64,000 nucleotides of DNA from an uncultured virus (IMG/VR IMGVR_UViG_3300044911_002384) (lineage: Duplodnaviria > Heunggongvirae > Uroviricota > Caudoviricetes), in the IMG/VR virus record IMGVR_UViG_3300044911_002384; one strand, 5' to 3'. Under the pieces are notes generated by a model. The model worked only from the letters and a program-made list of their open reading frames with translations, was not told where the DNA came from and made no database searches. Positions 4,453 to 36,865 of this stretch are shown here, one piece after another (positions within the stretch are counted from its first letter, which is position 1; the number at the start of each line of letters is the position of its first letter). The position numbers and the translations under genes are program-made.

Positions 4453-5637
4453 TCACTGTACTTTTAATAGTATTGTTTCTTCGTTTATTCTACCATTCAT
4501 TTTAGTATCTGTAGCTTTTATGTCCTCGAGAAACTTACGTAGTGCTACTTTACCAGCTGATTTAAACTCTTTTAGTTGGTCTGCGGGCTTTCTAAGTGTT
4601 TTTTGAACACTAAGAGTCTCACTGAATCCAGTAATACTAGCACCCTTAACACCAAGTTCGTTAAAGTCGGCAGCTACATATTTGCCTAATTTACGAGTTT
4701 TAGTATTATAAATCCACAATTCTTTGGAACCAATAATATCAGCAGGATTAATACTGACCAATTTCAAAGGTTCGTCAGACTTTTTATATTTGAGTTTAGC
4801 AACAATCTTGTCAGCAGGCACTACTTTTTTAGCACGTGGCTTACGATTGATTTTACTTTCTTGCATGAGCATAGTACATGCAGAATTTACTTCTGCGTAA
4901 AAATCAATAAGCTTTCGAATTTGTTTTTTACTGCGATGACTATACGCTTCACGTAATTGTTCGTCGGCTTGTCCACTAGCTAGTTCTTCTAGTTCAGCAA
5001 GATTGCCCGAGTAAAAGTCTCGGATGATACGTGCGTGAGCAGCTTTGGCATCTTTACCTTTTAGCAAGTTAAGAACTTTGAAAGCTTTTGGATCGAACGT
5101 TTCTGGATCTTCGTTCCAATTTTCGATAGCTGTTTCAATATCTTCCGTCATTGACATAGCAACTTCGCGAAGTCTATCTTGAATGCTAGGCTGTATCGTT
5201 GTAGTTTTAGCAATATCGTCTGTTACTTCTTCAACGTCATACGTGCCCTCACCTATAACTTTATTAACTTGAGCTAACAACCAATCCGCAGTGTTTCTGC
5301 CGTGATTAAAATCAGCTCGCTGTTCGGGCATACCCTTCAGTAAGCATGAAGCAATAGTTCCCATGGTAAGATGACTGCGCCAGTCTTTAGTACGCTTAAA
5401 CGACGCTATAATGCTTTTGTCCACGCCTTTTTGCGTTAACCATTTAATAACTTGAGGCTTTAGTTCTTTGCCACCGTATTCGGAACGGTAGTATAAAGAA
5501 CTGTTATGAAAATGTGCATAAAACTTGTCAATGTCCCAACTTTCACTACCTTCCCAATTTGGGCTAGTATCTCGTTTGGATTTAGAAGTTGCGGATTTTA
5601 CAACGACTTTTTTAGCTTTAACGCGAGCCATAATCAC
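4453..5637 (-). CDS. Hypothetical phage protein
   Basis: 394-aa ORF with GGAG SD; no recognised motif. Confidence 0.6.
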   Translation of the reverse strand: MIMARVKAKKVVVKSATSKSKRDTSPNWEGSESWDIDKFYAHFHNSSLYYRSEYGGKELKPQVIKWLTQKGVDKSIIASFKRTKDWRSHLTMGTIASCLLKGMPEQRADFNHGRNTADWLLAQVNKVIGEGTYDVEEVTDDIAKTTTIQPSIQDRLREVAMSMTEDIETAIENWNEDPETFDPKAFKVLNLLKGKDAKAAHARIIRDFYSGNLAELEELASGQADEQLREAYSHRSKKQIRKLIDFYAEVNSACTMLMQESKINRKPRAKKVVPADKIVAKLKYKKSDEPLKLVSINPADIIGSKELWIYNTKTRKLGKYVAADFNELGVKGASITGFSETLSVQKTLRKPADQLKEFKSAGKVALRKFLEDIKATDTKMNGRINEETILLKVQ

Positions 5638-30076: not shown

Positions 30077-30175
30077 TGGTGTGGTCGGTAGGCTTCGAAC
30101 CTACAAGAGCTTGGCTTTGCCTGTGCCCATCCCCGACCCAACGAGTGGGAGCTTTTCCAGTTTGCTTACGACCAC
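30077..30175 (-). tRNA. Atypical tRNA-like RNA, anticodon unassignable
   Basis: Intact acceptor GTGGTCG/CGACCAC+ACCA, D-arm and T-arm; extended bulged anticodon arm with 6-nt loop. Confidence 0.7.
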
Positions 30176-33249: not shown

Positions 33250-33341
33250 TGGTACCAGCGGTAGGAATCGAACCTACTCAAGAACGCTAATCTGGCGCTA
33301 AAAGGTGTATAAGACCTCTCTGACTTCCAAGTCTCGCTGGC
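33250..33341 (-). tRNA. Atypical tRNA with TAT anticodon (Ile?)
   Basis: Acceptor GCCAGCG/CGCTGGT, 4-nt D-loop, 7-bp anticodon stem, loop CTTATAC, long variable arm, CCA. Confidence 0.75.
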
Positions 33342-33979: not shown

Positions 33980-34699
33980 ATGGAACTTCTTGATATATTA
34001 TATACACCACTGGATCTGCCTGCTCCGCCTACTTGCAATGCACAATCTATAATTGATTGGATCGATCATAATAAAGAACAATTAGAACCTTACAAACAAT
34101 ATGCATATGATAATGAATTAACTTCTGAAAAAAATACTAAAGTTAAATGGCCTTGGAACATGGGGCTTGCTTATCTTAATTGGCAAGATCAAGGACCTGG
34201 GTGGCTATGTAACTTTGACAAAGAGTTTCCAGAACTCAGTAAGTATATGTACGAAGTATTTGAAATACCTTTAGAAGATTTAGGTACTATTGTAATACTG
34301 CCTGTAAGACACAAACATACTGGCATGGGATTCATGCACCAGGATCCTGGTAACTTTGGTCTTAGAATATATTTGGAGTTCGAGCATATAGGAAAAAATA
34401 AATTGTTTTTACAAAAAACAAGAGTTCCTTATATTAAAAGACCTAAGTATGAACCGCCAGTAGATCCAAAAATTTTACAACCAGAATTAATTGAATGTCG
34501 AACATTTTCTAATAGAGGTTGTTGGTTTATTAATAATACTCGTGCATTCCACGGTACATATACTGAAGTAGAAGACAGTACAAGAATTGCTGTTATTGTT
34601 AGTGGCAATCCTCGAAGTGATGCTAAAATCTATGACAGACTTAAAAATAAAATCATAGCCTCTGCCGAAAAATACAAAGACTATGCAGTGTTATGGTAA
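33980..34699 (+). CDS. Putative Fe(II)/2OG-type oxygenase
   Basis: MHQD, WFINNTRAFHG, RIAV; YTPLDLP resembles WLPLDIP of 19576/20409. Confidence 0.5.
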   Translation: MELLDILYTPLDLPAPPTCNAQSIIDWIDHNKEQLEPYKQYAYDNELTSEKNTKVKWPWNMGLAYLNWQDQGPGWLCNFDKEFPELSKYMYEVFEIPLEDLGTIVILPVRHKHTGMGFMHQDPGNFGLRIYLEFEHIGKNKLFLQKTRVPYIKRPKYEPPVDPKILQPELIECRTFSNRGCWFINNTRAFHGTYTEVEDSTRIAVIVSGNPRSDAKIYDRLKNKIIASAEKYKDYAVLW

Positions 34700-34769
34700 G
34701 GGGTACAGGGATCGAACCTGTGACACGCGGAATCAAAATCCGCTGCTCTACCAACTGAGCTAACCCCCA
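34694..34769 (-). tRNA. tRNA-Gln(TTG)
   Basis: GCGGA-TTTTGAT-TCCGC, weak 1:72 pair, CCA. Confidence 0.9.
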
Positions 34770-34776
34770 ATAAACT

Positions 34777-35052
34777 ATGAAAGACAGAATACCAACTAAT
34801 CTAAGACGCATGGTAATTGAAAGAGATGGTCTTCGATGTGTTTATTGTGACTTAGATTTAACAAACAATGAAGTTCATCTAGATCATGTAATACCTGAAT
34901 CTAAAGGTGGAAGAACATCGTTTGATAATTTACAAGTTACTTGTAGAAAATGTAATCTTGAAAAAGGTATTCTGACTGAAAGCGAATTCGTAAATAAGTT
35001 ACGAACCAGAGCTTTAAATATTCTTAGTAGAATAGGTAATGGTGGAGGATAA
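34777..35052 (+). CDS. HNH endonuclease
   Basis: RDGLRCVYC, HLDHVIPESKGG, NLQVTCRKCN. Confidence 0.92.
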   Translation: MKDRIPTNLRRMVIERDGLRCVYCDLDLTNNEVHLDHVIPESKGGRTSFDNLQVTCRKCNLEKGILTESEFVNKLRTRALNILSRIGNGGG

Positions 35053-35113
35053 CAGAATCGAACTGTTAATCTCGGCTTGCAAAGCCGATGTTATCCCATT
35101 TAACTAATCCCCC
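35040..35113 (-). tRNA. tRNA-Ala(TGC)
   Basis: G3:U70, loop TTTGCAA, CCA. Confidence 0.93.
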
Positions 35114-35115
35114 AG

Positions 35116-35361
35116 TTATTCTACATCTTTCTTGTCAACACAAGTTTCGCCTCTGAACACATAAACATCGCTGTCTATTCTCAGTTGTTCAAATACTTGA
35201 TTGTTTACACAGATGAATGGATCTTTATGATTTTGAGCATAGTAATACGCACCGTATCCTATGCCACCTAAAATCATAAGAATAGGAATATATTTTAAGA
35301 ATGATATAATCTGAGGCATCATGCCTAAAATTTGCGGTAGTTTTTCCAATAATTCTTTCAT
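35116..35361 (-). CDS. Small membrane protein
   Basis: One TM segment then Cys pair. Confidence 0.55.
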   Translation of the reverse strand: MKELLEKLPQILGMMPQIISFLKYIPILMILGGIGYGAYYYAQNHKDPFICVNNQVFEQLRIDSDVYVFRGETCVDKKDVE

Positions 35362-35374
35362 ACTGTTATTTAAC

Positions 35375-35463
35375 TGGTCTTGGTTGTTTGCCGCACAACC
35401 AAGGAAAGCGGGGGTCTGTTGTTGACAATTTGTCCTACTCTACGCCGTCAACAAGGGCGAGTA
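35375..35463 (-). ncRNA. Candidate pseudoknotted small RNA ending in ACCA
   Basis: TTGTTGAC/GTCAACAA and CTTGGTTGT/ACAACCAAG stems with loop pairings; 3' ACCA. Confidence 0.55.
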
Positions 35464-35464
35464 T

Positions 35465-35539
35465 TGGCTCCGAGAGTAGGGATCGAACCTACGACCAAAA
35501 GATTAACAGTCTTCTGCACTACCGCTGTGCTATCTCGGA
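35465..35539 (-). tRNA. tRNA-Asn(GTT)
   Basis: Loop CTGTTAA, CCA. Confidence 0.95.
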
Positions 35540-35549
35540 ATAAACTTTA

Positions 35550-35623
35550 TGGTACCCTTGGAAGGTAACGCTCCTACGTCTTTCGATTATCAGTCGAGTG
35601 CTCTACTTTTGAGCTACAAGGGC
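35550..35623 (-). tRNA. tRNA-Ile(GAT)
   Basis: Loop CTGATAA, non-canonical T-loop AGCGTTA, CCA. Confidence 0.85.
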
Positions 35624-35625
35624 AT

Positions 35626-35700
35626 TGGTAGTAGTGGTAAGAGTCGAACTTACACTGTACACCGTATGAAGGTGCTGCACTACCATTATGCTACACTACC
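35626..35700 (-). tRNA. tRNA with CAT anticodon (elongator Met or Ile2)
   Basis: Loop TTCATAC, CCA. Confidence 0.88.
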
Positions 35701-35783
35701 ATATAGAAACACATTCTTGGGCTCTCGTAACAGTAGCCCATAGCTCCGGACGCCATTATGTGTTTGAATGTGTTTTTATATGG
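35699..35783 (-). repeat. Inter-tRNA spacer hairpin, copy 2
   Basis: CCATATAAAAACACATTC...GAATGTGTTTCTATATGG. Confidence 0.7.
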
Positions 35784-35857
35784 TAGGTGCGGTGAGACTC
35801 GAACTCACAACTTATCGGTTAAAAGCCGATTACTCTAACCAGTTGAGTTACGCACCC
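35781..35857 (-). tRNA. tRNA-Lys(TTT)
   Basis: Loop CTTTTAA, CCA. Confidence 0.95.
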
Positions 35858-36061
35858 ATTCTTACTCCGTATAACTGCCACATAATTGCGGCTAGCTTAT
35901 GCTTGTTTTGATATGTGTAACCATATCTTAGCAATCCGCCTTTACAGCTCTTGTCACTATCCATAACAGGATCTCCTTATCTTAAATTTTTGTGTATATA
36001 AATTACTAAAATTCCAACCATTATTATAACTGTCACGCCCCCATGATATTTCTCCTTATAA

Positions 36062-36136
36062 TGGCGACTCGTAGGAGAATCGAACTCCTGTGTCCGGATA
36101 GACAGTCCAGCATAATTACCTCTATATGAACGAGCC
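36062..36136 (-). tRNA. tRNA-Asp(GTC)
   Basis: Loop CTGTCTA, G73, CCA. Confidence 0.92.
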
Positions 36137-36138
36137 AT

Positions 36139-36212
36139 TGGCTCCGGTGGAGGGAATCGAACCCCCACTAACGGTTTTGGAGACCGTCGCACTGCCATTA
36201 TACTACACCGGA
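36139..36212 (-). tRNA. tRNA-Trp(CCA)
   Basis: Loop CTCCAAA, CCA. Confidence 0.93.
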
Positions 36213-36218
36213 ATTATT

Positions 36219-36306
36219 TGGTGGGTGCTGATGGTAACGCTCCACGAACCTGACTTCCTATCTCTTAAGGTAACGGTTTTACAGACCGCCGACAGGGGCA
36301 ACACCC
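36219..36306 (-). tRNA. Atypical tRNA-Tyr(GTA) with reduced D-arm
   Basis: Acceptor GGGTGTT/AGCACCC+ACCA, GCGGT-CTGTAAA-ACCGT, only ~10 nt in D region, very long variable arm. Confidence 0.7.
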
Positions 36307-36520
36307 ATAACACTCTCACGCTATGCGTGTCAAGGGTGACTAGAGAGTGTGTATTAAAAAGCACTACTCATCTGCTTGCGCAATTTGACTGTTCGGCAAT
36401 GCTTTTTAATACGCTACCATTTTTTTATCCACACAAGGATAATCCATCCGGTAGGCCGCCCTTTTACTGGATGTTTATAGTGCCCAGCGAGGTCCTCGTT
36501 ACCTCTTTACACACTGTACT
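36307..36520 (-). ncRNA. Structured leader RNA between attenuator and first tRNA
   Basis: Stems GAGG/CCTC, CATCC/GGATG, TTATCC/GGATAA, CTACC/GGTAG, GTATTAAAAAGCA/TGCTTTTTAATAC, ACACTCTC/GAGAGTGT. Confidence 0.5.
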
Positions 36521-36523
36521 GCT

Positions 36524-36560
36524 AAAAACAAAAAACCCCAGGGTTTCTAATCCTAGGGTC
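36524..36560 (-). terminator. Attenuator terminator hairpin
   Basis: ACCCTAGG-N9-CCTGGGGT followed by TTTTTGTTTTT. Confidence 0.8.
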
Positions 36561-36586
36561 CTTTGAAGTTTGTGTTTTGTATTTTA

Positions 36587-36718
36587 CTACGTTACACGAT
36601 CCTCCATGGACCCTTTACCTGGTGTACGATCATTACTCTCAATCGTTGACCAATAAGAGGGCATAAAGCTCCCTTGCTTGGCTATCGTTTTGATTGTATA
36701 ATGAATCGTGTGTTGCAT
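36587..36718 (-). CDS. Putative leader peptide (43 aa) of tRNA array
   Basis: Not in ORF track; AGGA SD; MQHTIHYTIKTIAKQGSFMPSYWSTIESNDRTPGKGSMEDRVT, then TAG TAA; 3' end contains the antiterminator strand. Confidence 0.7.
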   Translation of the reverse strand: MQHTIHYTIKTIAKQGSFMPSYWSTIESNDRTPGKGSMEDRVT

Positions 36719-36748
36719 TTTTGTTCCTAAAAATTAACTTATGATGTT

Positions 36749-36865
36749 ATTGTATAGTCTAATTTGATTGCTGTCAACAACTTTTTACCTTTTTGGCAAA
36801 GTTGCTATACTTGCAACAAAACTCAACTATGCTTCTATTATATGAGTATTTATATCTTTTGTCAA
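36749..36865 (-). promoter_or_regulatory. Tandem sigma70 promoters of tRNA array
   Basis: TTGACA-N17-TATAAT (36837-36865) and TTGACA-N17-TACAAT (36749-36777). Confidence 0.82.

Follow-up and report, generated by a model that had tools for sequence, protein, structure and literature searches.

The window analysed here, a stretch of 64,000 nucleotides (nt) from a 364.5-kb IMG/VR phage record of an uncultured member of the Caudoviricetes (IMGVR_UViG_3300044911_002384, G+C 36.3%), carries on its minus strand 24 transfer RNA (tRNA) genes called by ARAGORN plus one more called by Rfam alone. At the head of this tRNA array, between positions 36,524 and 36,865, lies a leader that is probably a ribosome-dependent transcription attenuator sensing a general slowdown of translation. 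Two promoters, a 43-codon open reading frame (ORF) and an intrinsic terminator follow one another on the minus strand, and the end of the ORF pairs with the terminator to form an alternative hairpin. These parts are conserved in a large family of relatives, in which the hairpin covaries, the reading frame is kept open and most of the leader peptides contain all 20 amino acids. From this arrangement we infer that the position of the ribosome sets termination, and also which way the switch responds and to what physiological signal. Why phages carry tRNA genes and how these are controlled is a long-standing question, and a conserved switch linked to decoding would give phage tRNA arrays feedback control. 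The features of the leader are as follows.

36837..36865 (-): promoter P1, TTGACA-17-TATAAT, 12/12 consensus matches
36817-36801 and 36800-36784 (-): two small hairpins in the 5' untranslated region (UTR) of P1, between P1 and P2, read from the sequence
36749..36777 (-): promoter P2, TTGACA-17-TACAAT, 11/12 consensus matches
36725..36728 (-): Shine-Dalgarno sequence AGGA, 6 nt upstream of the ATG
36587..36718 (-): leader ORF, 43 codons plus TAG
36640-36655 and 36621-36632 (-): place of the motif W..I..(S/N)DRTPE, which is widely conserved in the family alignment
36602..36622 (-): region 2, predicted 5' strand of the antiterminator, codons 33-39, from minimum-energy folds and pair counts; segments CCAGG (36622-36618), AGGGTCC (36614-36608) and TGGAG (36606-36602)
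36555..36568 (-): region 3, predicted 3' strand of the antiterminator, CTTCA-AA-GGACCCT, the last 5 nt being part of the terminator 5' arm
36555..36614 (-): predicted antiterminator hairpin, 60 nt, whose apical part contains the stop codon (36589-36587)
36524..36559 (-): intrinsic terminator, stem ACCCTAGG/CCTGGGGT with a 9-nt loop, then TTTTTTGTTTTT; arms ACCCTAGG at 36559-36552 and CCTGGGGT at 36542-36535, T-run to 36524

The original prediction, made from the letters of the window alone, had listed two sigma70 promoters, an AGGA Shine-Dalgarno sequence, a 43-codon ORF and a terminator about 27 nt past its stop, and all of them are present as placed. P1 is kept in the relatives L006, L007 and L017 and in metagenome loci, the hairpins of its 5' UTR preserve their pairing in relatives though the letters differ, and the -10 box of P2 reads TATAAT in relatives. 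A scan of 11 kb found only three sites with 12/12 promoter matches; promoter-like sites numbered 43 in total, which is not above the shuffled mean of 38.4. The Shine-Dalgarno stretch (TTAGGAACAAAAATG) is preserved across the clade of the window, and the leader ATG stands 24 nt downstream of the predicted P2 start. The ORF belongs to no Pfam family. The terminator, whose G+C-rich stem of 8 bp starts 27 nt past the leader stop, was overlooked in an automated terminator scan because that scan accepts loops of 3-8 nt only.

Competing hairpins in the window and in its relatives

In the folded leader of the window, AGGGTCC-A-TGGAG (36614-36602, codons 35-39) pairs with CTTCA-AA-GGACCCT (36568-36555). 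The resulting antiterminator hairpin has an energy of -21.5 kcal/mol (z -4.97) that was equalled by none of 200 shuffles, and the terminator with its A/U extension reaches -15.3 kcal/mol (z -1.99), with seven of 200 shuffles as good. The minimum-energy fold of the whole leader includes the antiterminator (z -3.95, one of 200 shuffles as good), and the 3' part of the leader folded alone gives the terminator. The naked leader RNA is predicted to prefer the antiterminator, a preference that fits read-through as the default state without translation.

Relatives of the leader are plentiful. Homologues of equal length to the peptide are present in the protein collection; among them, P0002 (79% identity) is found on 29 contigs. 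A metagenome scan queried with an alignment of the leader peptide and its homologues gave 20 loci; the tblastn matches L044-L046, which encode an unrelated 83-aa frame, were dropped as spurious, and in all 17 true homologues the ORF has 42-44 codons, its indels leave the frame intact, and start context and downstream hairpins are shared. A second scan, over viral contigs and baited with the exact 17-nt 3' arm of the terminator, gave at least 120 loci, and the leader profile was matched over at least 120 of its 227 positions in 105 of 120 of them (among the matches listed). Among the 62 loci having at least 600 nt of downstream flank, 58 have tRNAs downstream on the same strand, 169-809 nt from the terminator (median 430), and none has a tRNA on the opposite strand.

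We folded 108 distinct leaders with the terminator 3' arm left out. In every one of them at least 5 nt of the terminator 5' arm (8 nt in most) pair with a segment of the ORF, which in most leaders is found 28 to 17 nt ahead of the stop codon and in all of them falls at least partly inside the final 32 nt. The stop codon is in the hairpin apex and the terminator 5' arm is taken up by the hairpin in 108/108 leaders, with the stop standing 41-54 nt before the terminator 3' arm. The mutual exclusion of antiterminator and terminator that had been proposed for the window is thus borne out by the overlapping strands, by the folds and by the sequestered arm throughout the family. Such a placement of the ORF would make a translating ribosome disrupt the antiterminator.

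The pairing of the antiterminator has been maintained through many changes of letter. In anchored single-sequence folds of the 108 leaders the outer pair is A-U in 52, G-C in 43, G.U in nine and unpaired in four, a further pair has C-G in 91 leaders and U-A in 11, and the inner helices use all pair types. These anchored counts depend on folds of single sequences, so a second count was made in fixed columns of a MAFFT alignment built from sequence alone. There, two-sided changes are seen at 9 of 12 antiterminator pairs and in 103 cells, against 53 +/- 11 in shuffles, and none of 500 shuffles reached any of five measures. Shifting the pairing by +1 likewise gives a high score (70.6% paired), owing to register slips within a G/C run. 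When a tree is built from the upstream sequence alone, it requires at least 17 changes at one letter of the outer pair and at least 18 at the other. In comparisons of independent pairs on supported branches, the partner shifts in the same direction an average of 4.6 times and in the opposite direction never (sign test p 0.06, with only six pairs). Even within the clade of the window the outer pair is A-U in six and G-C in eight of 14 rows. The terminator is the consensus structure of the family, with changes from G.U to G-C and two pairs changed on both sides; it is the only structure that RNAalifold finds in the 108-row MAFFT alignment, because the variable inner helices are misaligned there. 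Judged by its covariation, the antiterminator is a selected structure that excludes the terminator.

The same architecture recurs where the sequence has diverged almost completely. Weak matches to the leader profile led to remoter phages that also have the DUF3501 neighbour described below. Among these, L008, L009, L010 and L012 each have a sigma-70-like promoter, an ORF of 29-41 codons with its stop in the apex of a hairpin, and a terminator whose 5' arm is the 3' base strand of that hairpin, with almost no shared sequence and with inner helices entirely different in sequence. In the GenBank phage collection neither the leader of the window nor a typical family member has a match, tRNA hits aside, and no cultured phage with the element is found among its entries.

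The leader frame and its amino-acid content

The leader frame is open in all 108 distinct leaders, which run from 28 to 63 codons (median 47), whereas frame +1 is stop-free in two of them and frame +2 in none; shuffled interiors are stop-free in 6.2% of cases. Length differences between leaders are whole codons, and the indels stay in frame. The start is linked to a purine-rich stretch in 82 of 107 leaders. In some members (L008 at 4915-4950, L051, L132 and others) a -10 box lies about 10 nt upstream of the leader ATG, which suggests leaderless or near-leaderless messages. These features are strong comparative evidence, if not proof, that the leader ORF is translated. The original prediction had expected a conserved ORF position and compensatory changes in both helices despite divergence of the peptide; among the relatives the frame is open throughout, and antiterminator pairing persists through compensatory changes as the C-terminal peptide diverges.

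The leader of the window contains 18 amino acids (no Cys or Leu) and 29 different codons, including three for Ile and five for Ser. These counts agree with those made earlier, as does the caution attached to them that the diversity does not exceed chance: 18 amino acids compare with 16.8 +/- 1.3 expected (P 0.30), and 29 codons with 27.0 +/- 2.3 (P 0.25). L029, a near relative of this leader, has all 20 amino acids, and so do 82 of the 103 distinct leader peptides of the family, with 19 present in 16 more. For a peptide of 47 residues the expectation of finding all 20 is 1.9% with the amino-acid frequencies of the phage proteome and 3.7% with those of the family itself. When the peptides are grouped at no more than 50% identity they form 20 clusters, all of which have at least 19 amino acids and 13 of which have all 20 (the null for at least 19 in 47 residues is 13-20%); common descent alone is therefore no explanation for the composition, since clusters this divergent keep it.

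The scarcest residues are retained as single copies whose position shifts. Cys is present exactly once in 88 of the 103 peptides, in any of 26 alignment columns, and 80 peptides have a single His, in any of 20 columns. No regulatory run of codons for a single amino acid is found in the leaders, and the family has no bias towards Ala (5.6%). By this comparison the family shows selection for a complete amino-acid set within a leader of about 47 codons, which is an unusual and clean evolutionary signature and may help to find similar sensors elsewhere. The earlier suggestion that the leader would sense translation in general, and not the supply of one amino acid, gains support from the 82 complete peptides.

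A translation-dependent switch, its alternatives and its precedents

In the mechanism that we propose, host RNA polymerase would start at P1 or P2 and transcribe the 43-codon leader, the last nine or so codons of which would form the 5' strand of the long hairpin, with the stop in its apex. On naked or slowly translated RNA the antiterminator hairpin would be made first and would be the more stable fold, so that the terminator could not form and transcription would continue. Read-through would produce first a spacer RNA (36307..36523), then a Tyr-like sequence and the tRNAs for Trp, Asp, Lys, Met, Asn, Ala and Gln. A ribosome keeping pace with the polymerase would instead unwind the 5' strand and occupy either it or the stop while the 3' arm is made; the terminator would then form, and transcription would stop near 36524. 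As the leaders hold every amino acid, mostly upstream of the 5' strand, a delay at almost any class of codon would raise read-through, and the leader would monitor the pool of usable aminoacyl-tRNAs and exert feedback on the phage tRNA supply.

A narrower version of this proposal treats the leader as a 'codon sampler', an all-20 test message on which loss or cleavage of nearly any host tRNA would delay the ribosome and so turn on the replacement tRNAs of the phage. We advance it tentatively, as an idea with more chance of being wrong than right. Its trigger could be starvation or tRNA-targeting anti-phage nucleases, the link from the leader to such nucleases being pure inference from context. 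If correct, it would amount to a sensor-and-response loop against translation-directed immunity across a large family of uncultured lake phages. Phage tRNAs have been linked to escape from tRNA-cleaving defences in the excerpted texts of PMC10264068, PMC11555353 and PMC12409363, which gives a reason to tie tRNA output to the state of the host tRNA pool. These papers concern the tRNAs themselves, and no upstream leader or attenuator was noticed in the excerpts.

RNAalifold predicted a trp-like helix of the 1:2 type in the clade of the window only (97.9% paired, no two-sided changes), and single-sequence folds did not predict it consistently across the wider family. Being predicted in one clade only and showing no covariation, it was not taken into the mechanism.

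Several points weigh against the attenuator reading, beginning with the fact that translation, termination near 36524 and the coupling of the two are all deduced from sequence. The 9-nt loop of the terminator is large, and its conservation is partly built in, because the exact 3' arm served as bait. The rows of the family are related to one another. With no 1:2 helix predicted consistently across the family, untranslated RNA should read through, unlike in trp and his. Consensus promoters directly precede tRNA-Glu and tRNA-Pro, so that the leader can gate the first tRNA unit only and much of the array would escape it; the proposed control of the whole array therefore holds in that the leader stands at its head, and fails beyond the first unit. 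The leader of the window is itself among the least complete of its family, though the phage carries tRNA-Cys and tRNA-Leu. In favour of the attenuator reading, it is rich in codons rare in the phage (mean ln relative synonymous codon usage -0.23 against +0.19 +/- 0.08 for genes, more than 5 standard deviations below), but these may follow simply from the G+C-rich helices.

The distribution of amino acids along the leader adds a further difficulty. The all-20 set remains in 67 of 92 peptides after the last nine codons are cut, and in only 12 of 92 after the last 13, which places the end of the sampled part about where the 5' strand of the hairpin begins. Late codons of the leader are often the only source of Glu, Arg, Val and Asp, and this weakens the case because a ribosome stalled there would itself cover the 5' strand. 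Some overlap between the sampled part and the hairpin strand is thus present that a simple steric model does not explain. Something else must moreover constrain the peptide or the RNA at W..I..DRTPE, since the changes in the local hairpin at this motif are uncompensated (see below).

Transcripts offer little further guidance. Four metatranscriptome runs hold parts of the window as contigs, among them an exact 158-nt contig (36561-36718), an exact 152-nt contig that ends at the T-run (36522-36673), a 39-nt contig at depth 402 in one RNA library that lies on the terminator hairpin (36525-36563), and an exact 185-nt contig that bridges the terminator (36457-36641). Contigs from two studies end at 36522-36525. 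They are at most a weak hint that terminated and read-through forms both exist, and their inability to show transcript ends or to exclude DNA carry-over also counts against the attenuator.

The alternative that survives best, although we regard it as unlikely, is an ordinary small early gene followed by its own terminator, with translation irrelevant to termination and the hairpin either serving RNA stability or marking a processing site (e.g. for RNase III) at which leader and tRNA precursor are parted. Phage early regions abound in small ORFs with terminators behind them, the hairpin is a long imperfect duplex with bulges, of a kind that resembles known RNA processing sites, and the internal promoters could supply tRNAs ungated. 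The 39-nt contig at depth 402 is likewise as expected of a stable end fragment. Ordinary protein selection, however, would not keep a single wandering Cys or the all-20 set of 82 in 103 peptides, and the C-terminal peptide varies freely where the base pairing is preserved. A stop in the apex and a sequestered terminator arm, found in 108/108 leaders, would be unneeded for either stability or processing.

A somewhat poorer candidate is the same RNA switch driven by arrest of the nascent peptide, in which W..I..(S/N)DRTPE would stall the ribosome on a ligand or state. In 101 of 103 peptides the Trp falls in a single alignment column, DR(T)P(E) is widespread, and the Arg is conserved while its codon alternates between CGC and CGT. 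The local hairpin (hairpin B, TTGGT/ACCAG plus ACGAT/ATCGT) was rejected as a sufficient cause of the motif on account of its uncompensated changes (C.A in 12 rows, A.C in 10, U.U in 10 and C.A in 14). Arrest peptides such as TnaC have a fixed spacing, whereas here the distance from Trp to Pro differs between members, from 10 to 14 residues. The clade of the window has NREP or NREL in place of DRTPE, and L008-L010 are without the motif. Stalling at DRTP would leave the ribosome over the 5' strand of the hairpin and favour termination, which would be odd for an inducer, and the all-20 composition would be left unexplained. The leader peptide may have a role in arrest or pausing. A riboswitch-like leader with an incidental ORF, having one fold stabilised by a small molecule, a protein or, as in a T-box, a tRNA, would suit the heavy structure (z -3.95) and the choice between terminator and antiterminator that is a common riboswitch output, yet it is very improbable, given a frame open in 108/108 leaders against 2 and 0 for the other frames, no Rfam family for the leader, T-box included (751-nt search, E up to 10; 20 related loci, E up to 0.01), and no visible conserved ligand pocket, the apical parts of the hairpin varying freely in sequence as well as in length (47-72 nt).

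The closest precedent for a ribosome-dependent attenuator of this kind is whiB7 of mycobacteria. As described in the excerpted text of PMC10274678, a short upstream ORF (uORF) precedes a rho-independent terminator there; efficient translation leads to the terminator and impaired translation to an antiterminator and read-through, and expression goes up when the start codon is lost. Which starvations are sensed depends on the amino acids present in the uORF, that of M. smegmatis having all but Cys, and Ala is enriched to 25-40% (PMC10274678, same excerpts). The phage leader appears to share the logic, with translation of a uORF choosing between terminator and antiterminator, and the broad amino-acid content. 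It differs in keeping all 20 amino acids with no Ala bias (5.6%) and in its output, which consists of tRNA genes where that of whiB7 is a host drug-resistance transcription factor; the two have no sequence relation. Selection for completeness, as seen in the single wandering Cys of the phage peptides, is not reported for whiB7 in the excerpts of PMC10274678.

The enterobacterial amino-acid operon leaders trpL, hisL, pheL, leuL, thrL and ilvL, for which a general model is summarised in PMC1183508 (consulted in excerpt), have in common with the phage leader a translated leader, an exclusive choice of antiterminator or terminator, and ribosome position as the signal. The phage leader, in contrast, has no run of codons for a single amino acid, its family shows no consistently predicted 1:2 anti-antiterminator, its stop lies in the apex of the antiterminator and not before region 2, and its targets are tRNAs in place of biosynthetic enzymes. 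The trp/his geometry recognised in the original prediction therefore stands for the translated leader and the exclusive hairpins only; with no 1:2 helix consistently predicted in the family, the phage leader is closer to whiB7.

T-boxes also control genes of the translation apparatus through a terminator/antiterminator decision that reports on the tRNA pool. The phage leader would be similar in tying this choice to the tRNA pool, but a T-box binds uncharged tRNA directly and needs no ORF, whereas the phage leader has a conserved translated frame. The uORFs of the toiL, erm and cat leaders act via Rho or by unmasking a ribosome site, and respond to drugs. They resemble the phage leader in being short ORFs on which a stalled ribosome alters downstream expression under translation stress, and differ from it in that the phage leader uses an intrinsic terminator and has tRNA genes as its output; toiL of topAI-yjhQ in E. 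coli senses translation inhibitors, according to the excerpted text of PMC12121999.

The claim that no attenuator of this kind had been described accordingly holds for tRNA genes, for which no leader-peptide attenuator was found in the literature covered (subscription journals and supplements being outside its scope). It does not hold for the wider class, since a general translation-stress attenuator is already known from whiB7, as far as the excerpts of PMC10274678 go. With amino-acid operons and whiB7 as precedents, the phage leader is a new use and a new design rule for a known class of mechanism, and not a new principle. Its novelty lies in having phage tRNA genes as the output, in how widespread the family is and in selection for a complete set of amino acids.

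The tRNA array and the surroundings of the leader

The tRNAs do lie downstream of the leader, as had been stated, but do not follow it at once, the first called tRNA (Trp, at 36212) being 312 nt past the T-run of the terminator. The features of this interval and of the array are given below.

36307..36523 (-): structured spacer RNA, 217 nt, separating the tRNAs from the terminator; z -3.02 for the fold of 36213-36530
36219..36306 (-): tRNA-Tyr-like sequence, 88 nt, with GTA in a CTGTAAA loop, a 7-bp acceptor stem and an ACCA end
34654..36212 (-): first tRNA unit, with Trp, Asp, Lys, Met, an Rfam-only tRNA, Asn, an 81-codon ORF, Ala and Gln
35553-35623 (-): the Rfam-only tRNA of the first unit, 54 bits
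34777-35052 (+): HNH endonuclease gene between tRNA-Gln and tRNA-Ala (Pfam HNH_5, E 7e-17)
34685-34654 (-): terminator-like site closing the first tRNA unit
33724-33696 (-): sigma-70 promoter directly before tRNA-Glu, 11/12 consensus matches, no leader
30209-30181 (-): sigma-70 promoter directly before tRNA-Pro, 12/12 consensus matches, no leader

The profile of the spacer RNA matches 88 of 120 family loci (among the matches listed), and no Rfam family matches it. The tRNA-Tyr-like sequence was called by neither ARAGORN nor Rfam and was identified by reading the sequence. It is without a normal D arm and apparently degenerate; a fuller version is found in relatives from the clade of the window, and among the 58 relatives that have a tRNA downstream, 21 have tRNA-Tyr as the first one called. 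The codons of the window's leader are not enriched for the eight amino acids of the first-unit tRNAs, which account for 15 of the 43 (hand count) compared with about 36% of the proteome.

In many relatives a conserved ORF of 53-60 aa with its own ribosome site stands directly after the terminator, before the spacer RNA and the tRNAs (L092 936-1118, L108 937-1110 and L049 936-1097; also L009, L010 and L012). It is absent from the clade of the window.

Upstream of the leader, the neighbour on the opposite strand is a 192-aa ORF with no Pfam family, whose sole relative in the phage collection is annotated as Asp/Arg-hydroxylase-like. Genes for a DUF3501 protein and a rubrerythrin are found farther upstream on the minus strand. 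In a synteny comparison, L003 and L004, which have relatives of the 192-aa neighbour gene, showed no adjoining tRNA array.

Two of the tRNA calls in the array are over-long, an Ile-TAT of 92 nt at 33250-33341 (-) and a Pro-TGG of 99 nt at 30077-30175 (-). The former scores best as tRNA-Sec, below threshold, and both may contain insertions.

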